Assembly (NCBI GenBank): GCA_017991395.1
Contig: JAGOQQ010000006.1
Location: forward strand, 66 to 64,065
Direction of reading: 5' to 3'
Length of the DNA: 64,000 bases
From: Minisyncoccota bacterium
Lineage (GTDB): Bacteria > Patescibacteriota > Minisyncoccia > Phycocordibacterales > UBA9973
Position numbers and translations under genes: made by a program. Below, one piece after another: positions 3,976 to 60,692 of this stretch. Below the pieces are notes generated by a model. That model was not told the DNA's origin, ran no database searches, and was given only the letters and a program-made list of their open reading frames with translations. Within the stretch, counting starts at the first letter, position 1, and each line of letters starts with the position of its first letter.

Positions 3976-4116
3976 AGAGACTATAATAATATATTTTGAT
4001 TCATAAGTAAAGGGACAGGAATTCTCCATCAAAAAAACACGTATACCCCCCTTTATTGCCAATTCTTATACCCTAACAACAAAATAAGCATTTCTTTCCA
4101 ATCCTCCTCATTTGGA

Positions 4117-4140
4117 GCTTTGCATAAGTGTTCCCTTAAC
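4117..4140 (+). repeat. Conserved 24-mer GCTTTGCATAAGTGTTCCCTTAAC (copy 1 of 3 near-identical, plus one degenerate copy)
   Basis: Near-identical copies at 40929-40952 and 56949-56970, and a degenerate copy at 43851-43868. All lie on the plus strand in intergenic DNA. Confidence 0.7.
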
Positions 4141-4276: not shown

Positions 4277-4315
4277 TCCGCGTCTTGTCCGCGTTAAGTC
4301 CGCATCTGTCCGCGT
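4277..4315. repeat. 11-bp-periodic TCCGCGT box array in the 3' UTR of the FAD-oxidase gene
   Basis: tccgcgtcttg tccgcgttaag tccgcatctg tccgcgtctaa; the same type of array recurs at four other gene 3' ends. Confidence 0.65.
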
Positions 4316-6061
4316 CTAACTCGAGTGAACCTGACTTGGATGATCCGGCTTTATAAGATACTTCTTGATATCCTCCTTGGTTCCTCCAACTTTCTTTTTT
4401 GGATTGAAGATATTTTTTGGATCAAACACTTGTTTTGTAGATTTGAACAAGTCTACGATGTGTTCACCAAACATCTGTGTCAGAAATGGTGTTCGAATAA
4501 TTCCGTCATTGTGCTCGGCGTCTATTGAACCTTCGTATTTGATAACAAGCTCGTACACTTTTTCAGATAGTGTGAGAATTGTCTCAGTTGTTTTCGGATT
4601 ATTGAAATCCATCAATGGAATGACATGAAAATTTCCATTTCCCGCATGTCCTGCGATCGTATACACAAGCTCTGGGTATTGCTCAAATAGTGTGTATAGT
4701 TTTGGTAAAAACTCTGGAAGAAATTCTGGGCGAACAATAATATCATCAATAAATGGTGCAGTGCGCTTCCCTTTCACGTGTTTGCGAAGAAGTGCAAAGC
4801 TATCACGTCGCATATCCCAATACTTTTTTGCCTCAGTTTCGTCTTCAGTCACACGCACTGTGTGTCCAAATTTGCTTACAAGTGGCACAAGCTCTCTTCC
4901 TCTTTTTTTCGCATTCGCTTCATTGTCTGCCCAGTATTCCACGAGAAGTATTAGTTTTGGTACACCGCCCGTAATCATCATGAAAAATTCTGGAATAAAC
5001 TGAGTTCCAAATTTAAGTGTTCCAAAAAATCCTTTTGCTTTTACAAAATCCTTGAAAAATTTCATCGCAAGCTTAAATGTCTTGTCGTCATATGACTCCA
5101 TACTTTCTGGATGAGTTTTTGAAATCTCATGTACAAGCTCGCCAAGATTGTCGAGTGATTTCATCATAATCACCACGAGTGATGATGCCTTGCGTGGTTC
5201 CACGAGTGCAATTTTCATTTCAGTCACAAGTCCGAGTGTACCCTGCGCGCCGATTATTAGTTGAGACATATCAAACACATCTTCATTTTCTTTGTCTTTT
5301 GAAATTGTGTTCCAAAGATTGTATCCTGATGAATTTTTTGAAACTCTTGGTTTTGCGGCGCGAATCAATTGTTCATTGTCTTTGATGAGATTGTAGATAG
5401 TCTTATAGAGTTCACCTTCAAAATCTATTTGAGCAATTTTTGAATACAATTCTCGTCGTGTGAGTGGCCGTACAATATATTCGTGTCCATCTTTCAATAT
5501 TACTTTAAGCTCTCTCACATAGTCCTCCATTTTTCCGTATCGAAGTGTGAGTTCTCCACCAGAATTGTTTCCCACCATTCCACCAAGTGCATTGATTGAT
5601 TTTGAGGCGGTATAGCAAGGCAAAAGTAACCCTGCTTCCTGGGCTTGTTTTTCAAAATCCCGATACATCACACCAGGCTGAACTATCGCCTCGCCTGTAC
5701 ACACCACCTCTTTTGCACCATAAAAATGCGGGAGAATTGTGAATGGTAAAGATTTCCGAATAGACACAATCTGATTCATAAACTTTGTCGTATCAACAAT
5801 AATTGAGTCGTTGATTGATCCACCAGACATACACGTACCCGCAGCCCGCATAGTGATTGAAAGCTCGGGATCTTCTTTTTTGTGATCATTTACCCATTTG
5901 ACTAGATTTGAAATATCTTCTGCATCTCTCGGAAAAACCACAACCTGTGGTCGAATTTCAAAAACACTTGCGTCGTGCGAGTACGCATCTTTTGTTGCCT
6001 CGGATACATCTACTTCACCTTTTATAAACGCAAGATCTTTTTTGAAATCAATCATGTGCAA
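4316..6061 (-). CDS. FAD-binding oxidoreductase (FAD-linked oxidase / GlcD-D-lactate dehydrogenase superfamily)
   Basis: N-terminal FAD-binding PCMH-type domain (FPRDAEDISNLVKW... RAAGTCMSGGS) and a long C-terminal oxidase domain; 581 aa. Confidence 0.7.
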   Translation of the reverse strand: MHMIDFKKDLAFIKGEVDVSEATKDAYSHDASVFEIRPQVVVFPRDAEDISNLVKWVNDHKKEDPELSITMRAAGTCMSGGSINDSIIVDTTKFMNQIVSIRKSLPFTILPHFYGAKEVVCTGEAIVQPGVMYRDFEKQAQEAGLLLPCYTASKSINALGGMVGNNSGGELTLRYGKMEDYVRELKVILKDGHEYIVRPLTRRELYSKIAQIDFEGELYKTIYNLIKDNEQLIRAAKPRVSKNSSGYNLWNTISKDKENEDVFDMSQLIIGAQGTLGLVTEMKIALVEPRKASSLVVIMMKSLDNLGELVHEISKTHPESMESYDDKTFKLAMKFFKDFVKAKGFFGTLKFGTQFIPEFFMMITGGVPKLILLVEYWADNEANAKKRGRELVPLVSKFGHTVRVTEDETEAKKYWDMRRDSFALLRKHVKGKRTAPFIDDIIVRPEFLPEFLPKLYTLFEQYPELVYTIAGHAGNGNFHVIPLMDFNNPKTTETILTLSEKVYELVIKYEGSIDAEHNDGIIRTPFLTQMFGEHIVDLFKSTKQVFDPKNIFNPKKKVGGTKEDIKKYLIKPDHPSQVHSS

Positions 6062-14063: not shown

Positions 14064-14120
14064 ATTGATATATTGTAGCAAAAAAAATTCCACGCACTAA
14101 ATTTCCGTATAGAATGAATC

Positions 14121-14575
14121 TTTCCCCGCCTGCCAAGGAGGGGCGACGCAAGGCGACGGGGGTGGTTTATTGCCTTTCTTCAAGTACCCTTCTAATATTC
14201 TCCAAAACCGACTCAAGGTTTGTATTTATTTCAGCATTTGTAAAACGAACCACAGAGATACCTTGCGATTGAAAAAATTCACTTCTTACCCTGTCATGCT
14301 CCATTGCTTCTTTGTCAAAATGTTGGACGCCATCAATCTCAACGACTACTCTTTTTTCTGAACAATAAAAATCAGCAATATATCTTCCAATACTGTGCTG
14401 TCTTCTAAGCTTGTAGCCAATTTTTGAATTTTTAATTCTACTCCACATTATCAATTCTTGTGGAGTCATACTATTTCTGAGATTCTTTCTTTGTTCTTTT
14501 AATTTTGTAAGATTATTTATTCTCATACACCACCCCGTCACTTCGTGACACCCCTCCTTGGCAGGTGGGGAAAAA
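14121..14575. mobile_element. DUF559 nuclease gene bracketed by ~46-nt imperfect terminal inverted repeats (candidate miniature selfish element)
   Basis: The upstream arm 14121-14166 and the reverse complement of the downstream arm 14527-14575 are ~85% identical (TTTCCCCnCCTGCCAAGGAGGGG...GACGGGGTGGT). The arms share tcacttcgtg + CCTCC hairpin motifs with other repeats in the window. Confidence 0.35.
14167..14526 (-). CDS. DUF559 domain protein (Vsr/restriction-endonuclease-like fold)
   Basis: LRRQ..IGRYIADF...VVVEIDG.QH......D..R...L...G..V.RF.N.E pattern of DUF559. Start set at the internal Met so the gene does not overlap the inverted repeat. Confidence 0.7.
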   Translation of the reverse strand: MRINNLTKLKEQRKNLRNSMTPQELIMWSRIKNSKIGYKLRRQHSIGRYIADFYCSEKRVVVEIDGVQHFDKEAMEHDRVRSEFFQSQGISVVRFTNAEINTNLESVLENIRRVLEERQ

Positions 14576-14584
14576 ATCAAAAAC

Positions 14585-16122: not shown

Positions 16123-16182
16123 GTGCTGAATTTATTTCAGCACCTCACAAATCAAGATCCTGAAACAAGTTCAGGATGACAC
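16123..16182 (+). repeat. Hairpin repeat pair: GTGCTGAATTTATTTCAGCAC + GATCCTGAAACAAGTTCAGGATGACAC (family D copy)
   Basis: The same GATCCTGAAAC..AGGATGACAC module occurs at 40766-40790 (and inverted at 40623-40647) and at 55609-55658. Confidence 0.65.
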
Positions 16183-16280
16183 AAAATACGAATATCAGTA
16201 TATCAAAAATAAGGCTTTTTTCTATACTTGACAATAAATTAATAATAGTATTTAATTCATTCAAATATAAAAAACAAAAA

Positions 16281-26191: not shown

Positions 26192-26233
26192 TCCGCGTCA
26201 TCATCCGCGTAAGTTCCGCGTTTATCCGCGTCC
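26192..26233. repeat. 11-bp-periodic TCCGCGT box array in the 3' UTR of ftsI
   Basis: tccgcgtcatca tccgcgtaagt tccgcgtttat ccgcgtcctg immediately after the stop of the minus-strand PBP gene. Confidence 0.65.
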
Positions 26234-26235
26234 TG

Positions 26236-27948
26236 TTAGCGATCAGGCGCAACATCATAATAACTCAGCAAGTACTTAGAGAGGTCAAAAAATGGTTCGG
26301 CGAGTGTGGCAGTGGCGTATTGAACACCACGAGGATTTTTTACATACATCAAGACGAGAAATTGTGGGTTGTATGCAGGATAGTATCCAAACAGTGAGTG
26401 GAGGTATTGGTCGGCATGATACCCACGTCCATTTTCAAGTGCAATCTGTGCCGTACCAGTTTTGGCAGCGACACTATAATGCTCGTTTTTGTATTGCCCT
26501 GCACCCAGACCTTTGTCTACCACAGTTACGAGCATTTTTGTGATATCCTCGGAAGCTTTGGCTGATATTACTTGCGTACCACCTCCAAATTCCAGTGGAG
26601 TGATTTCGCCATCTTTTGTTTTTACTGCTTTTGCCACATGTGGGGTGACCGTCATACCACCATTTGCAAGTGCTGAAAACGCACGTATTACTTCCACGGG
26701 CGTCATTGCTATTCCCTGTCCGAATGCCGCGTTTGCATACTCAATTTCTCGATTACTTTTTAGGTTTGAAGTAATTCCCGAAACTTCACCCGGCAAGTCT
26801 ATTCCTGTTTTTTCTCCAATCCCATATGCAAGCATATAATTTTTGAAGTTTTCCTTTCCCATTTGTTGCATTACAAATACCATTCCGGTATTGAGTGATT
26901 GAGTAAGTACGTCTTGCATCGTTGCTTTACCACGAGCTTTTTTGTCGAAGTTGTGGATTTTTTCGGTGTTTATCGTGAGTTCACCTTTGTCGATATATGT
27001 CGTATCTGGACGAACCGCATTTGTATCAAGACCAGCCGCCATCACAAGTGGCTTCACAATAGACCCAAACTCGTACACACTTTCTACAAGTGGATTGTTG
27101 TAGGTAGAAACAGAATCAACATCGGAAAAATTGTTCAGATCAAATGTGGGCAAATATGTCATTGCATATATTTCACCATTTCTTGGATTCATGATTATAG
27201 CCCCTGCTCCTTCTGCACTATACTTGTCTAATGTTTTTGATAAAAGCTTTTCAACGTATTGAGTCACCGATGGTTCAAGTGAAGTGATGACATCTCCATT
27301 TGTACTATTTTCATTGAACACTGAATCATGCAACGTTGAAAATACTTCTGTGAAGAAGTTGCTGTACAGAGGATTTTTGTTCAATGTCAAAGTATCATTA
27401 TAAAAACGTTCAAGTCCATATCTTCCCACAATTTCATTGCCTTTAAACGCCACAAAACCAATTGTGCGTGCTGACATCTGTCCGCCTGGATAAAACCTCC
27501 AATGATCCTTTTTGAATGCTAAACCACTGTTTTTGAGTGCATTGATAGCTTCATATTCGGATTGTGTGACATGCATCACTGCATCTACGTGTGTACCGCC
27601 TTTTTGTACTCTGTTGTTATAAAAATCTACATCCATGTCAGGAATAATTTCTTTGAGCTTTTGAAGTAACTCTGCTGTGTCACCAGCCTTATCCTTGTTT
27701 ATAGTGAGCATGTACCCAGATACACTTGTACCGGCACTCACAAGAGTCCCGTCCTTTTTTTGAGAAAATATTGTTCCACGTTCAAATTTTTGAAATTCGG
27801 AACTTGTCAGCTTACTACTCACCTGCTGGCTAAATTCATCTCCACGGAGCACTTGCAGATAAAAAAGTCTTGCAATAAGCACTCCTGTAACAATGCACAA
27901 GATTAGTGAAATTCCTGTAATTCGTGTAAAAGATTTGTTAGAGCTCAT
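26236..27948 (-). CDS. ftsI: Peptidoglycan D,D-transpeptidase, class B PBP (FtsI-type, in dcw cluster)
   Basis: N-terminal TM, PBP dimerisation region and transpeptidase domain (SxxK, SxN, KTG motifs); downstream of mraZ-rsmH-ftsL. Confidence 0.85.
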   Translation of the reverse strand: MSSNKSFTRITGISLILCIVTGVLIARLFYLQVLRGDEFSQQVSSKLTSSEFQKFERGTIFSQKKDGTLVSAGTSVSGYMLTINKDKAGDTAELLQKLKEIIPDMDVDFYNNRVQKGGTHVDAVMHVTQSEYEAINALKNSGLAFKKDHWRFYPGGQMSARTIGFVAFKGNEIVGRYGLERFYNDTLTLNKNPLYSNFFTEVFSTLHDSVFNENSTNGDVITSLEPSVTQYVEKLLSKTLDKYSAEGAGAIIMNPRNGEIYAMTYLPTFDLNNFSDVDSVSTYNNPLVESVYEFGSIVKPLVMAAGLDTNAVRPDTTYIDKGELTINTEKIHNFDKKARGKATMQDVLTQSLNTGMVFVMQQMGKENFKNYMLAYGIGEKTGIDLPGEVSGITSNLKSNREIEYANAAFGQGIAMTPVEVIRAFSALANGGMTVTPHVAKAVKTKDGEITPLEFGGGTQVISAKASEDITKMLVTVVDKGLGAGQYKNEHYSVAAKTGTAQIALENGRGYHADQYLHSLFGYYPAYNPQFLVLMYVKNPRGVQYATATLAEPFFDLSKYLLSYYDVAPDR

Positions 27949-40266: not shown

Positions 40267-40515
40267 CTATTTTATACTCTTTATTAGCTCCAATTTTTCT
40301 GACCGTGACATTGATTTTATCCTTGCTTCTGCTTTTGACGAAGTTGATCGATTTTTGAATTTTTTAGAATATACCAACGCGACTGGACGACGAACTCGAG
40401 TATACTTTGCTCCCTTTGAAGAAGAATTGTGCTCGTTTACTCGACGATTAATATCGGTGGTGATTCCGGTATAGAGTGTGCCGTCTTTGCACTTGAGGAT
40501 GTAGAGGAAATACAT
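40267..40515 (-). CDS. GIY-YIG nuclease-domain protein (UPF0213/YhbQ-like), copy 1
   Basis: YFLYILKCKDGTLYTGITTDINRRVNEHN GIY-YIG motifs; 82 aa. Confidence 0.75.
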   Translation of the reverse strand: MYFLYILKCKDGTLYTGITTDINRRVNEHNSSSKGAKYTRVRRPVALVYSKKFKNRSTSSKAEARIKSMSRSEKLELIKSIK

Positions 40516-40622
40516 AAATTAACTATAACAGAAGAAGGTAGTACGTGGATCGTAGAACGCGGAACGTTAAACGCAAAAGTACTAAACACAGGAACACTAA
40601 AACACGACATCATAGCATTCGC

Positions 40623-40790
40623 GTCATCCTGAACTCGTTTCAGGATCTCAAGAATTTTTTCCCCTCCTTGTTGAGGAGGGGTGCCTGAAAGGCGGGGTGG
40701 TGTGCCTCCCCTTGAGGGGAGGTGTCCGAAGGACGGAGGGGTAAGAATGAATTGAATGAATTTTAGATCCTGAAACGAGTTCAGGATGAC
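40623..40790. mobile_element. MITE-like 168-bp element with perfect 25-bp terminal inverted repeats (GTCATCCTGAACTCGTTTCAGGATC ... GATCCTGAAACGAGTTCAGGATGAC)
   Basis: The TIRs are exact reverse complements. The interior carries two GC-rich hairpins (CCCCTCCTtgttgAGGAGGGG; CCTCCCCttgaGGGGAGG) in an otherwise AT-rich context, with no ORF. TIR-like half-sites recur at 16156-16182 and 55609-55658. Confidence 0.45.
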
Positions 40791-40846
40791 ACGGGATTCT
40801 GCATTTCACTATCGCCTATAAACTATTCGCCATCACCTTTATTCTT

Positions 40847-40907
40847 TTACCCCTCCTCACATTCACTTCGTGTAATGTCGTCCTCCCCTCTAGGAGAGGC
40901 TTGAATT
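40847..40907 (+). repeat. 60-nt repeat (family C) copy 1: TTACCCCTCCTCACATTCACTTCGTGTAATGTCGTCCTCCCCTCTAGGAGAGGCTTGAAT
   Basis: 58/60 identical to 57921-57980. It shares the TCACTTCGTG + CCTCC hairpin architecture with 14541-14575 and 40976-41020. Confidence 0.7.
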
Positions 40908-40928
40908 CTGAATTCCCTACCCGCTATA

Positions 40929-40952
40929 GCTTTTCATAAGTGTTCCCTTAAC
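40929..40952 (+). repeat. Conserved 24-mer GCTTTTCATAAGTGTTCCCTTAAC (copy 2)
   Basis: See 4117-4140. Confidence 0.7.
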
Positions 40953-41020: not shown

Positions 41021-41062
41021 TTCGGCGTTTGTCCGCGTTAAGTCTGCGCACAGTCAGCGTCT
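41021..41062. repeat. TCCGCGT-type box array in the 3' UTR of the ABC-F gene
   Basis: ttcggcgtttg tccgcgttaag tctgcgcacag tcagcgtct directly after the ABC-F stop. Confidence 0.55.
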
Positions 41063-42574
41063 CTACCCTTTCATTTCCTCCAACAATTCCCCAAGCTCCT
41101 TGTGTCTCGGAAGCACTGTCTGATTGTGAACCACCCAAAACATAGTTGGTGCAAATGCTTCGATAAATTCGTAATCATGACTCACAAGTAGAATTGTACT
41201 TTTTGATGTCTTACACGCTTCAAGTAGGATTTCCCAAGTAACTTCATCAATATGGTTTGTAGGCTCGTCGAGAATTATCAAATCTGGTCGCTGTCCAAAC
41301 ACAATCGCAAATCGAAGTCGCATTCTCTCCCCTCCTGAAAGATTTTTAATCGGTGAAATCATTCTTGGTGTATCAAATTTCATCATACCTAGAACTGAGC
41401 GCGCTTCTTGATCAATCATATTGAGCTTCTGACACACAATATCCACCGCGCGAAGTTCTGGATCAAATTGTGCATGCTGATCAAAGTAGGCATAGCTGAT
41501 TCCATTTCCAAATGTCGCCTCTCCTTTTGTAAATGGAAGTTCTCCTGTGAGACATTTTAGGAATGTTGATTTACCTGAACCATTTCGTCCAAGAAGTACC
41601 ACCTTGTCACCTGTACGAATTTCCAAATCCACATTATCAAAAATCCTTTTCTTCGGCTCTGGAAATTCAAACATTCCCTTCACTACTTTCAATACGAGCT
41701 TTCCTCCGTGCAAGCCTTGTTCTGTACTTGCGATTTTGATTTTGTTTTGAGCTTCATCTGGTCTACCGTTTTCTTTTGCTTCTTTCTTAAGTTGTGCGAG
41801 TTCTTCCTTTGCACGTTTGTAAGCCGATACTTCTTTTCCACGAAATGCTTTCTGTTGCAAAATTACAATCGCCGAAGAAAGCTGTTTGATTCTTTTTGAA
41901 CGCACATCATGATCACGCTGTAGTCCAGCAATTCTCTCTACTTTCGTTTGAATATAATCATCGTAGTCACCTTCAGAAATAAATATTTTTCCTTGCACTA
42001 TTTCGCCAATTTTTGTCGCAACACCATCGATAAGCAATCTATCGTGAGAAATAAAAATAATAGCCCCACGAAATTCTTCTAGAAGTCGCACGAGTTCCAC
42101 ACGACTCACAATGTCGAGATGGTTTTCTGGTTCATCGAGAAGTAGGAAGTCCGGCGCGAGTGCAAACGCACACGAAAGCGCAAGAATCTTTTGTTGTCCT
42201 CCTGAGAGTCTCCCACACTTTGTATCTTTGTGCTTTTCAACATGAAATCCGAGCATCTTGGCAAACATATGTACTTTTTTTGAAAGTGTTTCTCCTGCTT
42301 TTTCTTTGATGAATTCTTCAATCAAAAGATCCTGATGTGAGTGGTCAAACTCCTGAGGAACAAACACAAATCGTATATGTCCTTGCTTTTCTACTCTTCC
42401 TGAATCTGGCTCAAGTTCACCACAGATAATTTTCAACAGCGTTGATTTCCCTGCTCCGTTTTCTCCGAAGATACAAATTCGCTCATCTTCCGCACAACGA
42501 AAAGAAACGCCCTGTAAAATGGGCTTTTCATTGACTGCGTATTCAACATTTTTGACTGATATAGTCTTTTGCAT
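41063..42574 (-). CDS. ABC-F family ATPase (two ABC domains, no TMD; translation-associated EttA/Uup-like)
   Basis: Two Walker A (GENGAGKST; GRNGSGKST) and two LSGG signature motifs with an inter-domain linker; 503 aa. Confidence 0.85.
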   Translation of the reverse strand: MQKTISVKNVEYAVNEKPILQGVSFRCAEDERICIFGENGAGKSTLLKIICGELEPDSGRVEKQGHIRFVFVPQEFDHSHQDLLIEEFIKEKAGETLSKKVHMFAKMLGFHVEKHKDTKCGRLSGGQQKILALSCAFALAPDFLLLDEPENHLDIVSRVELVRLLEEFRGAIIFISHDRLLIDGVATKIGEIVQGKIFISEGDYDDYIQTKVERIAGLQRDHDVRSKRIKQLSSAIVILQQKAFRGKEVSAYKRAKEELAQLKKEAKENGRPDEAQNKIKIASTEQGLHGGKLVLKVVKGMFEFPEPKKRIFDNVDLEIRTGDKVVLLGRNGSGKSTFLKCLTGELPFTKGEATFGNGISYAYFDQHAQFDPELRAVDIVCQKLNMIDQEARSVLGMMKFDTPRMISPIKNLSGGERMRLRFAIVFGQRPDLIILDEPTNHIDEVTWEILLEACKTSKSTILLVSHDYEFIEAFAPTMFWVVHNQTVLPRHKELGELLEEMKG

Positions 42575-44526: not shown

Positions 44527-44538
44527 AAATTTAAAGCA

Positions 44539-44567
44539 AAAAGACTGCGGTGTACGCAGTCTTTTTT
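44539..44567 (+). terminator. Rho-independent terminator after the ECF sigma gene
   Basis: aagactgcg gtgta cgcagtctt + T7. Confidence 0.75.
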
Positions 44568-44595: not shown

Positions 44596-44656
44596 TTCCG
44601 CGTGATGTCCGCGTCTGTCTGCGACTATTGCTGGGGTCTTTGAGCTAGAACCGTGG
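44596..44656. repeat. TCCGCGT boxes followed by the block TTGCTGGGGT-CTTTGAGCTAG-AACCGTGG shared with the tRNA-Gln 3' flank
   Basis: TTGCTGGGGT (10 nt) and CTTTGAGCTAG (11 nt) also occur within 30 nt of each other at 53389-53417, where TTGCTGGGGT is the 3' end of tRNA-Gln. Confidence 0.55.
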
Positions 44657-44776: not shown

Positions 44777-45358
44777 TTAGTACTGATCAAATTGTGAAAG
44801 ATCAACATCACTTGCACTCGCAGTACCGCCAGTCACTTCATTCAATGTTACTTCCCATCCTGCTGACTGCGTAGCTGTCGTCTCAAACTCAAATGTCTCA
44901 TCGAATGCAGAGGCGTGAGCATTTCGATTGAATTTCTGCGTAGATGCATTCCAATCTGTACCTTGTGCAAATGCAAGCCAATATGTACCGTCATCTATAT
45001 TTTCCATCGTGTAAGTACTGTTAGCTTTGATATATACAGTAAGTACTGAGGCGCCGTCACGAATCAATTTTGCCACCGCGTCATAGCTAGTTCCATTACT
45101 AATTTGCAATTGTCCCTCACCTTGCAAGTACGCACTTTGTTTCTTCAAGACAGTACCAGTCGGAAGCGAATTTCCTGGCGTAAGATCTGGAACCTGTACT
45201 GTCTCTTGTTGTGATTGTGTTACTGTCGAAGGAGTTGGCAAAGGTGATGATATGTCGGTGTCTTCCATGGCACCCCAAATAATCAAACCAACAACAATTA
45301 GCCAGAACCACCAGCGAGCCACAAACCGTAGAACGTCTTTTATTGATAAGTTTTGCAT
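44777..45358 (-). CDS. Hypothetical exported/membrane-anchored protein (193 aa)
   Basis: N-terminal TM (WWFWLIVVGLIIWGA), then a S/T/Q-rich linker and a beta-rich domain; no homology. Confidence 0.45.
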   Translation of the reverse strand: MQNLSIKDVLRFVARWWFWLIVVGLIIWGAMEDTDISSPLPTPSTVTQSQQETVQVPDLTPGNSLPTGTVLKKQSAYLQGEGQLQISNGTSYDAVAKLIRDGASVLTVYIKANSTYTMENIDDGTYWLAFAQGTDWNASTQKFNRNAHASAFDETFEFETTATQSAGWEVTLNEVTGGTASASDVDLSQFDQY

Positions 45359-55323: not shown

Positions 55324-55332
55324 AATTGTAGC

Positions 55333-55482
55333 TTATTCAGCTGAAGATTCTTCAGTCGCTTCTTCAGTAGCCATTTCAGCTTCTTCAGCAGCAACTTCTT
55401 CTGCCTTTACTGTCGCTTCTTCTGTAGCTTGTACTTCTACAGTTGCATCATCAGTCTTGATGATTGTGTCGTCGTTGTTCAT
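55333..55482 (-). CDS. Small highly acidic peptide (~49 aa; MNNDDTIIKTDDATVEVQATEEA...)
   Basis: Hand-translated ORF below the 60-aa cutoff of the ORF track. It has its own strong terminator, but its low complexity makes it uncertain. Confidence 0.3.
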   Translation of the reverse strand: MNNDDTIIKTDDATVEVQATEEATVKAEEVAAEEAEMATEEATEESSAE

Positions 55483-55608
55483 AGTATTTTTTGTTTAAGA
55501 TTTAAAAATGCGACCAGGAGTTCAACCATAACACACTTTTTATAAAATACCTACTACGCGGAACTATGCAGACTAGACGCTGACAAATTTCGCGGAAAGA
55601 ATGCAAGA

Positions 55609-55658
55609 GATCCTGAAACAATACTGAAATAAATTCAGCACAAGGCACAGGATGACAC
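55609..55658 (+). repeat. Family D repeat copy (GATCCTGAAACA..CTGAAATAAATTCAGCAC..AGGATGACAC)
   Basis: Same modules as 16123-16182 but arranged with the small hairpin nested inside. Confidence 0.6.
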
Positions 55659-55696
55659 AACACAAAACCGGGACAACACGGAATTCTGTATTTTAC

Positions 55697-55724
55697 GTTC
55701 TGCGTTCTACGCTCTACGTTTTCT
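55697..55724. repeat. GTTCTAC-type heptad tandem repeat (x4) straddling the dus stop codon, followed by 11-nt-periodic GTTCGCGTA boxes inside the dus 3' end
   Basis: gttctgc gttctac gctctac gttttct; the same heptad family occurs at 57985-58041. Confidence 0.55.
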
Positions 55725-56937: not shown

Positions 56938-57000
56938 TCCGCGTCTAAGCTTTGCATAAGTGTTCCCTTATCCGCGACTGTCCGCGTTTATTCCGCGTTC
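56938..57000. repeat. Composite: TCCGCGT box + 24-mer GCTTTGCATAAGTGTTCCCTTA (copy 3, 56949-56970) + three further TCCGCGT boxes at 10-11-nt spacing
   Basis: catccgcgtctaa GCTTTGCATAAGTGTTCCCTTA tccgcgactg tccgcgtttat tccgcgttc; lies between the ftsQ-like 3' end and the dus 5' end. Confidence 0.65.
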
Positions 57001-57920: not shown

Positions 57921-57980
57921 TTACCCCTCCTCGCATTCACTTCGTGTAATGTCGTCCTCCCCTCTAGGGGAGGCTTGAAT
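57921..57980 (+). repeat. 60-nt repeat (family C) copy 2
   Basis: 58/60 identical to 40847-40907. Confidence 0.7.
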
Positions 57981-57984
57981 CAAT

Positions 57985-58041
57985 GTTCTAGTGTTCTACG
58001 TTCTACGCTTTACGATCTACGTTCTACGTTATACGTCTTAC
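57985..58041. repeat. GTTCTAC heptad tandem repeat (x8, degenerate) running into the serS stop codon
   Basis: gttctag t gttctac gttctac gctttac gatctac gttctac gttatac gtcttac. Confidence 0.65.
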
Positions 58042-60300: not shown

Positions 60301-60407
60301 TCTTTTATCTTCTAAGTTTGCAAAAAATTTCTAACTATAGTATTACTTAGCAAGTAATTGCGAACTCACAGATATATTTCGTACGAGCTCGTGTATACTA
60401 TTTGTGT

Positions 60408-60692
60408 ATGAATCCCGTTAGAGACAACAAGTATTACTATGTCTATGTGTTAAGAAGTATTACTCTTAAGTTGTTTTATACTGGCTATACAAGTGATTTA
60501 CGGAAGCGCTTGAAAGAGCATAACGACAAAAAGTCTACATGGACAAAAAGTCGTGGTCCGTTTGCCTTAATTTATTATGAAGCGTGCATTAATGAAAAAG
60601 ACGCAAGGTCTAGAGAATTATATTTAAAAACAGGAATGGGCAAACGGTATATAAAAAATCGTTTAAAGCGCTTCCTGTCTCTAACGGGATGA
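60408..60692 (+). CDS. GIY-YIG nuclease-domain protein (UPF0213/YhbQ-like), copy 2
   Basis: YYVYVLRS...LFYTGYTSDLRKRLKEHN motifs; start set at ATG 60408. Confidence 0.7.
   Translation: MNPVRDNKYYYVYVLRSITLKLFYTGYTSDLRKRLKEHNDKKSTWTKSRGPFALIYYEACINEKDARSRELYLKTGMGKRYIKNRLKRFLSLTG

Follow-up and report, generated by a model that had tools for sequence, protein, structure and literature searches.

Helically phased heptamer arrays behind stop codons of a Candidatus Paceibacterota genome: probable solo arms of a nuclease-associated insertion element

The stretch of DNA considered here, called the window, is 64,000 nucleotides long and comes from a metagenome-assembled genome (MAG) of Candidatus Paceibacterota (Patescibacteria/CPR). 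In a curated map of the ORFs, coding sequence accounts for 88.6% (56.7 kb) of the window, and the remaining 7.3 kb is intergenic. The heptamer TCCGCGT occurs 18 times when both strands are counted, against 2.78 ± 1.76 copies expected from 100 shuffles of the window, none of which reached 18. The plus strand carries 14 of the 18 copies. With 14 copies in the intergenic part and 4 in the coding part, the heptamer is ~27-fold denser between genes than within them.

Many of these copies had been noticed as periodic arrays at the 3' ends of five minus-strand genes, and all five arrays are present (A-E). They consist of three or four boxes each of the form ACGCNGA on the minus strand, at a spacing of 10-12 nt. 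The minus strand is the gene-bearing strand at the arrays, and the boxes read ACGCGGA there. Below, arrays reading ACGCGGA are called A arms and those reading TCCGCGT T arms. Four of the five arrays (A, B, C, and E) begin 0-4 nt past, or across, a stop codon, as had been noted, but the fifth (D) lies at some distance. Array A (4277-4315, minus strand) reads ACGCGGA cag ATGCGGA ctta ACGCGGA caag ACGCGGA, with spacings of 10, 11, and 11 nt, and is located directly behind the TAG stop codon (4316-4318) of a gene for an FAD-linked oxidase (4316-6061). It is a single A arm without a partner arm. Array B (26192-26231, minus strand) contains four exact ACGCGGA boxes, spaced by 10, 11, and 12 nt, 4 nt past the TAA stop codon (26236-26238) of ftsI (26236-27948), with convergent genes on either side. 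The left arm of array C (41022-41060, minus strand), which reads ACGCTGA ctgt GCGCAGA ctta ACGCGGA caa ACGCCGA, lies 2 nt past the TAG stop codon (41063-41065) of an ABC-F gene (41063-42574). Array D (44597-44624, minus strand) comprises the three boxes ACGCGGA, ACGCGGA, and TCGCAGA. It is found between convergent genes, with the stop codon at 44777 ~150 nt before it and a bidirectional terminator (44538-44566) shortly behind it. Array E (56971-56998, minus strand) also has three boxes; a spacer between them holds the TAA stop codon (56988-56990) of a gene for a 298-aa, FtsQ-like protein, of which the first box encodes the last residues.

The description of the arrays as TCCGCGT heptamers is exact for array B, but array C contains only one exact copy, and position 5 of its boxes is T, A, G, and C, i.e., free. 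Similarly, the near-helical phasing that had been proposed is real, but the spacing ranges from 10 to 12 nt and is not strictly 11 nt. When the window was scanned for four ACGCNGA boxes at a spacing of 10-13 nt, only arrays A, B, and C were found, and no such array was encountered in 20 shuffles. The same scan detected no intragenic four-box array in the window.

Several further arrays had been overlooked. Array C has a right arm at 40543-40563 (minus strand), TCCGCGT TCTACGA TCCACGT, with a period of 7 nt. It is located 27 nt upstream of a small gene for a GIY-YIG nuclease (40267-40515, minus strand), and the two arms of array C enclose a 458-nt mosaic of other repeat modules. A T arm of four boxes (TCCGCGA, TCAGCGT, TCTGCAT, and TCCGCGT; 55556-55596, minus strand) in the spacer downstream of dusB is the partner of a period-7 left array (ACGTAGA GCGTAGA ACGCAGA ACGTAAA; 55692-55719, minus strand) on the other side of a ~95-nt hairpin module, and the TAG stop codon of dusB (55714-55716) is inside the first box of this left array. 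Another period-7 array, of six CGTAGAN-type units (57995-58036, minus strand), is located 1 nt past the TAA stop codon (58038-58040) of serS. Finally, a lone ACGCGGA box (56938-56944, minus strand) is present behind array E, on the far side of a 25-mer module. In six of the seven arrays of the window that directly follow a gene, the stop codon is at most 4 nt away from the array or overlapped by it, with the array in the sense orientation.

The spacers that contain the arrays are mosaics of small repeats, including a 25-mer, a 60-mer, and a GTGTCATCCTGAAC...GTTTCAGGATCT hairpin. The 25-mer, AGCTTTGCATAAGTGTTCCCTTAAC, is present at 4116-4140, 40928-40952, and 56948-56972, with no strand assigned, and each copy is near a box array. 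Two copies of the 60-nt repeat (40847-40906 and 57921-57980), which are 97% identical, share spacers with box arrays. The hairpin repeats constitute a family separate from the boxes, with members at 16155-16185, 40618-40651, 40762-40793, and ~55600-55650 in the window; they are also found in loci of related genomes (4286-4312 in L122 and 11555-11582 in L123), and the loci occupied differ between the genomes. Besides these repeats, the window contains a gene for a DUF559 protein, a Vsr-like endonuclease (14167-14580, minus strand), bounded by a 47-nt inverted repeat (14115-14161 and 14533-14579) that is 81% complementary. This gene with its inverted repeat is a second kind of nuclease cassette, the ends of which are unrelated to the box arrays. 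In addition to the GIY-YIG gene behind array C, which was assigned through the relative L123, a second small gene of this type (60402-60692, plus strand) is squeezed in between dprA and topA, with an overlap at the topA start. A small, very acidic ORF (55332-55481, minus strand; MNNDDTIIKTDDATVEVQATEEATVKAEE...) between dusB and the next gene has a terminator-like hairpin behind it and is conserved in the relative L245.

Comparison with close relatives revealed turnover. Array A is absent behind the same stop codon of the FAD-oxidase gene in a locus (L246) of the MAG GCA_030916695.1, the ftsI contig of which is ~96% identical to the window. L123 lacks array C; there, the ABC-F gene shows 91% identity, and homology ends at the stop codon. 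Array B has four boxes in the window and three in a relative with 96% identity (L122); in the latter, the boxes have been preserved, one spacer differs, a G-to-T substitution is found at box position 5, and the sequence beyond is unrelated. Array E is identical in L245, and the period-7 repeat behind serS has four units in L245 vs. six in the window. A clean pair of an empty and a filled site was not found among the loci of the relatives, the whole spacer being different where an array is absent. Since close relatives lack or vary them, the arrays are not fixed features of the genes that they follow.

The arrays of the window belong to a much wider family. When one genome of each species was scanned for three boxes, most matches were coding repeats of high-G+C genomes with periods of 9 and 12 nt, and the low-G+C and period-10 matches were the informative ones. 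Non-coding arrays with a period of 10 nt were found in Chloroflexota, Planctomycetota, Acidobacteriota, Gemmatimonadota, and Xanthomonadales; the scan of the ORFs beside the period-10 arrays of high-G+C genomes was too noisy for use. Within the CPR, arrays with periods of 10 or 11 nt were found in Saccharibacteria and in Wolfe-, Jorgensen-, Moran-, Lipton-, and Doudnabacteria. The CPR arrays are stereotyped, with typically four boxes spaced by 10, 11-12, and 10 nt, whereas the spacing in the window is 10, 11, and 11-12 nt. A pattern of 27 specified bases for the four-box layout retrieved at least 120 metagenome loci (694 kb in total, with a median G+C content of 0.44). It matched a single one of 2.9 million viral contigs, and a viral origin is considered unlikely. 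Neither the arrays of the window nor those of six loci with the element matched any Rfam family, and no description of the element was found in the searchable literature on the heptamer, on palindromic elements or MITEs of the CPR, or on GxxExxY proteins (discussed below).

Among the matches listed, where two arms are at most 40 nt apart, an A arm is followed by a T arm in 16 cases, vs. one in the reversed order. These complete elements have a loop of 1-30 nt and a total length of 72-106 bp and contain no ORF. The terminal boxes vary freely in their outermost base, so that the ends of the element are CGCGGA and TCCGCG. The flanks of 25 listed elements show no direct repeat that could represent a target-site duplication. 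Any base is allowed at position 5 of the box, and the two arms often disagree there. When the arms of 22 complete elements were compared, the box cores were complementary at 95% of the positions, vs. 46% for position 5 and 34% for the spacers. Thus, it is the set of phased boxes that is conserved and not a stem or hairpin. Consistently, the arrays alone fold no better than shuffled sequences and form only 4-bp CGCG mini-stems; significant z-scores are due to neighboring hairpin modules. The claim that the arrays are not hairpin terminators is therewith borne out. That they bind a protein, as was also predicted, is still the best reading of helically phased boxes with preserved cores and spacers that are barely complementary, and this pattern points to recognition of duplex DNA on one face, presumably by a protein.

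Where members of the family are inserted was determined for 142 evaluable elements among the matches listed, an insertion being counted as in frame when at least 100 stop-free codons are present on each side. One frame reads through 49 of the 142 elements, and in another 10, both sides are coding but in different frames. Furthermore, 52 elements abut one long ORF within 6 nt, and 31 abut none. Hosts that were confirmed with Pfam include TopA, RecG, UvrB (twice, at the same site), PPDK, IF-2, class I aminoacyl-tRNA synthetases, a LepA-like GTPase, and a Mur ligase, and conceptual translation of the in-frame inserts gives peptides such as TRTNADYTRTNAD or SPRESALSPR. Copies are also located inside 23S (L174, L156, L214, and L226) and 16S rRNA genes (L183 and L148). 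Because the arrays are found in frame in essential genes and in rRNA genes and vary between nearly identical genomes, they are hardly a signal for gene ends. What had been named as a refutation, namely occurrence inside coding regions and without restriction to 3' ends, applies to the family as a whole, though not to the window itself.

Some of these host genes deserve separate mention. One 23S rRNA gene in L156 (11100-12948) contains three complete elements or arrays, and another complete element immediately precedes its 5' end. Two of these copies were judged by eye to be ~85% identical, spacers included, which suggests a recent duplication within the genome. In the uvrB genes of two CPR lineages (L033, 525-603; L061, 4082-4181), the element is positioned between the GEPPxxLLxYF and DESH motifs. 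This shared position may reflect either site-specific homing or an old insert of which the boxes were kept by selection. Two genes for class I aminoacyl-tRNA synthetases (L098, 526-3441; L127, 3338-7084) have a histidine-phosphatase (His_Phos_1) domain inside the catalytic domain, and the ORF in L127 holds five box arrays.

The arms also flank a particular type of gene. In at least seven loci (L104, L007, L221, L162, L158, L131, and L212), an ORF for a protein of the GxxExxY family (PF13366) is located between two arms. In L104, this ORF (TIGR04256, E = 3e-37; PF13366) is in frame inside a gene for a LepA-like protein, flanked by an ACGCGGA arm and a TCCGCGT arm of four boxes each. The locus in L007 belongs to a member of the Chloroflexota. 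An HMM search of the loci that had been selected for their arrays yielded 13 GxxExxY ORFs, of which eight were judged to be flanked directly by arrays. The reciprocal approach, in which six GxxExxY loci were picked by protein homology alone and their flanks inspected, showed inverted arrays of short direct repeats in all six, with ACGCNGA-like boxes in four and other boxes in two. In an Amesbacteria locus (L260, 1080-1700), the inverted arrays are of GATTAGCACRTGA boxes, and in an isolate of Mucilaginibacter (L274, 500-1100), they are of (T)AACAGAAT boxes. The different boxes suggest that specificity classes exist within the family, and co-evolving pairs of a protein and its site would look like this.

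In the GxxExxY family, residues G26, E31, Y34, D70, E80, and K82 are invariant. A structural model with a pLDDT of 92 matches only PD-(D/E)XK nucleases, and these weakly (TM ~0.45); no sequence relative was found in the PDB. The ORF is ~125 codons long and encodes a PD-(D/E)XK core without an obvious DNA-reading domain. An HMM search detected no GxxExxY gene in the 64-kb window, and therefore, a partner acting in trans is assumed in the genome from which the window derives.

Taken together, the arrays of the window probably belong to a multi-copy family of small, palindromic, nuclease-associated insertion elements and are, for the most part, single arms. A complete element would consist of two inverted arms (5'-CGCGGA ... 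TCCGCG-3') with approximately four ACGCNGA boxes each, one per helical turn, which enclose either a short loop of 1-30 nt or a GxxExxY PD-(D/E)XK nuclease gene of ~125 codons. The copies in the window would then be ORF-less, non-autonomous arms just behind stop codons, where they would be of little cost to the cell and be transcribed passively as 3' UTR. The boxes would serve as binding sites for the element's own nuclease, probably a GxxExxY protein provided in trans, which would mobilize or maintain the element in a manner comparable to the use of subterminal repeats by transposons. The vicinity of stop codons would represent tolerated or preferred insertion sites and not a host function. 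The successive steps from a position beside the GxxExxY ORF to binding by its product, and from there to mobilization, are conjectural. Homing endonucleases recognize empty target sites and not their own flanks. Against an insertion element speak the lack of a visible target-site duplication and of a clean pair of an empty and a filled site, the tiny nuclease core, the absence of a GxxExxY gene from the window, and the non-canonical spacing of the window arrays, none of which is intragenic.

The strand and position of the solo arms require additional explanation. Among the metagenome loci listed, 29 ORF ends face an A arm and 5 a T arm, mostly with the stop codon 0-4 nt before the first box. 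For solo arrays at ORF ends, these numbers are 16 and 2. Also inside ORFs, the sense strand reads ACGCGGA more often than TCCGCGT (30 vs. 13), the frame being ACG-CGG-A in most cases. Selfish insertion at random does not on its own account for this adjacency to stop codons and the strand bias of the solo arms. The idea that arms are anchored, i.e., kept by the gene that they abut, predicts T arms at gene starts, but 7 A arms and 3 T arms were seen there, and the idea was abandoned. The bias could be due to strand-specific insertion, to tolerance at the level of the peptide or RNA, or to co-option of the arms. Strand-specific insertion could generate it because, as deduced from the G+C skew, genes and replication are co-oriented in the window.

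Co-option would mean that the element is of selfish origin and that the sense-oriented solo arms next to stop codons now act like E. coli REP elements, as 3'-UTR stabilizers or as modulators of translation termination, and are kept for that purpose. Besides the orientation and position bias, for which random insertion offers no explanation, the identity of array E in L245 and the retention of the boxes of array B in L122, where a spacer and box position 5 have changed, would fit such a role. However, the arrays by themselves form no structure as RNA, turnover by presence or absence is seen at two of the five sites, no partner protein was identified, and the bias could equally be an effect of the replication strand. 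Co-option is, therefore, considered rather unlikely.

The original prediction sees in the arrays a signal of the host that marks gene ends and to which a factor for termination or antitermination, or an RNA-binding protein acting on the 3' UTR, would bind. The preference for stop codons and the sense orientation, both in the window and among the metagenome loci listed, are in its favor. So is the scarcity of hairpin terminators behind the array-bearing genes, a claim that holds in part: on the transcribed strand, no terminator-like site is present behind arrays A, C, and E or overlaps any array, but such sites are found on the minus strand behind arrays B (26026-26004) and D (44566-44538). Array D is located just upstream of what is a canonical terminator and array B ~165 nt upstream of its terminator-like site, and many genes in the window have ordinary intrinsic terminators at their ends. 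Moreover, relatives with 91-96% identity have no counterpart of arrays A and C behind the corresponding stop codons, a third of the family members are in frame inside ORFs and others are inside rRNA genes, and the arms flank nuclease ORFs. A host signal of this kind at gene 3' ends is thus quite improbable, and this part of the prediction is not supported. The specific candidates fared no better. Intrinsic (Rho-independent) terminators were rejected on account of the 4-bp mini-stems and the absence of terminator-like sites that overlap the arrays. Rejected as well was a rut site, for which ~80 nt of C-rich, G-poor, unstructured RNA would be expected in the transcript: the arrays are 28-40 nt long, the transcript reads ACGCGGA with more G than C, and YC dimers recur every 11 nt on the antisense strand only. 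Readings as DnaA boxes, as CsrA sites (GGA), or as TRAP-like sites were dropped; the intragenic, rRNA-located, and polymorphic distribution speaks against any fixed host site.

Formation of the arrays in place by replication slippage, as local tandem repeats without mobility or a shared origin, would explain why copy numbers vary between close relatives, i.e., six vs. four units behind serS and four vs. three boxes in array B. It would not explain that the same box with the same four-box spacing is found in many CPR lineages, and the same box with a period of 10 nt in other phyla, nor that spacers differ within a single array and that the arrays form defined inverted pairs flanking the same ORF family; bursts within a genome with shared ends were seen in part, in L156. 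Slippage is accordingly deemed highly improbable. The possibility that the arrays are operators of an OmpR/PhoB-type response regulator (pho-box-like, with 7-bp direct repeats and 4-bp spacers) that control a downstream gene is hardly credible, for although three to four tandem heptamers with spacers of 3-5 nt, one per helical turn, have the period of such operators, convergent genes flank arrays B and D, the transcribed (minus) strand beside the arrays is free of promoter-like sites, arrays A and C are missing from the orthologous spacers of close relatives, and copies exist inside ORFs and rRNA genes. The arrays of the window should not be annotated as terminators or operators.

If the window arrays are indeed copies of a nuclease-associated insertion element, the GxxExxY/PDDEXK_3 family would obtain its first biological context, and the nuclease with its four-box array would constitute a testable pair of a protein and its DNA. 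The element would explain odd, short peptide inserts in CPR core proteins and at least a portion of the short, unclassified inserts in rRNA genes of the CPR. GC-rich box arrays in these AT-rich genomes would represent mobile DNA and not regulatory sites, which would be a warning to annotators, and streamlined genomes of ~1 Mb would still tolerate a prolific selfish element. A more far-reaching proposal, which is possible but put forward only tentatively, is that the proteins of the widespread GxxExxY family (PF13366) are the nucleases of undescribed, cross-phylum mobile cassettes that end in helically phased heptamer arrays, with the box co-varying with the nuclease. ORF-less derivatives of these cassettes would have spread across the CPR into essential genes, in frame, into rRNA genes, and into stop-proximal sites, and the strand-biased solo arms of the window would result from insertion specific for a single strand or from co-option at 3' ends.

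Among known systems, the Rickettsia palindromic elements (RPEs) share with the box-array element the capacity to reside in genes. RPEs are short palindromic repeats that are found in frame in many protein-coding genes of a bacterium with a small genome, including essential ones, and also in its RNA genes and spacers, and they add short peptides to surface loops. They were reportedly described by Ogata et al. in 2000. The box-array element is likewise present in frame without disrupting its host genes, with 49 one-frame insertions vs. 10 with different frames among the matches listed, none of them in the window. However, the arms of RPEs are continuous complementary stems, whereas the box-array element retains only phased 7-nt boxes. 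Furthermore, its arms flank GxxExxY genes, and it spans many CPR lineages, with period-10 arrays in other phyla too; we know of no nuclease ORF that is linked to RPEs. In view of the different phylum and anatomy, no sequence relationship is expected, and the likeness is one of analogy only.

Like REPs and BIMEs, the copies in the window are extragenic and near stop codons, vary between strains, and are linked, as a family, to a dedicated enzyme, and their mosaic arrangement with small intergenic modules is reminiscent of BIMEs. REPs of E. coli and Pseudomonas are single hairpins of 20-40 nt with a GTAG head, which are mobilized by an HUH Y1 transposase (RAYT). In contrast, the units of the box-array element are arrays of direct repeats without a conserved stem and with spacers that are not complementary, the linked ORF encodes a PD-(D/E)XK protein, and the family invades ORFs. 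MITEs, such as Correia, Nezha, and the Coxiella QMITEs, resemble the element in being small, ORF-less, and multi-copy, in having inverted ends in common with an ORF-bearing form, and in differing by presence or absence between genomes. Complete elements, at 72-106 bp, are short in the same way, and equal arms are found around GxxExxY ORFs; the window copies are mostly single arms. Target-site duplications were not seen in the flanks of the 25 elements mentioned above, and the ends are repeat arrays instead of simple terminal inverted repeats. To our knowledge, GxxExxY is not a transposase family.

The intervening sequences of rRNA genes, which are cut out of the precursor rRNA by RNase III, are also inserts that are bounded by inverted repeats in 16S and 23S rRNA genes and in some cases carry a small selfish ORF (23S_rRNA_IVP). 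The box elements in the rRNA genes listed above (L156, L174, L214, L226, L183, and L148) are similar in this respect. The box-array element, however, also occurs in protein-coding genes and spacers, and its copies in the window are outside rRNA genes. A survey from 2024 of inserts in CPR rRNA genes reported that short, unclassified, ORF-less inserts are common, and it makes no mention of repeats or of these boxes (PMC11270868).

Short direct repeats in helical phase, inverted between the two ends, are further known from the TnsB sites of Tn7, the L1-3 and R1-3 sites of Mu, the hexamers of Ac/Ds, and repeats of the pho-box type. Such phased repeats with inversion between the ends are a classic layout for cooperative binding of a protein. 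The box-array element differs from Tn7, Mu, and Ac/Ds in having no DDE or HUH transposase, and a protein that binds its boxes is presumed. Thus, RPEs, REP/BIME-RAYT systems, MITEs, and the intervening sequences of rRNA genes are the closest analogues; the box-array element lacks defining features of each of them and, by analogy, would work like them without being a member of any.
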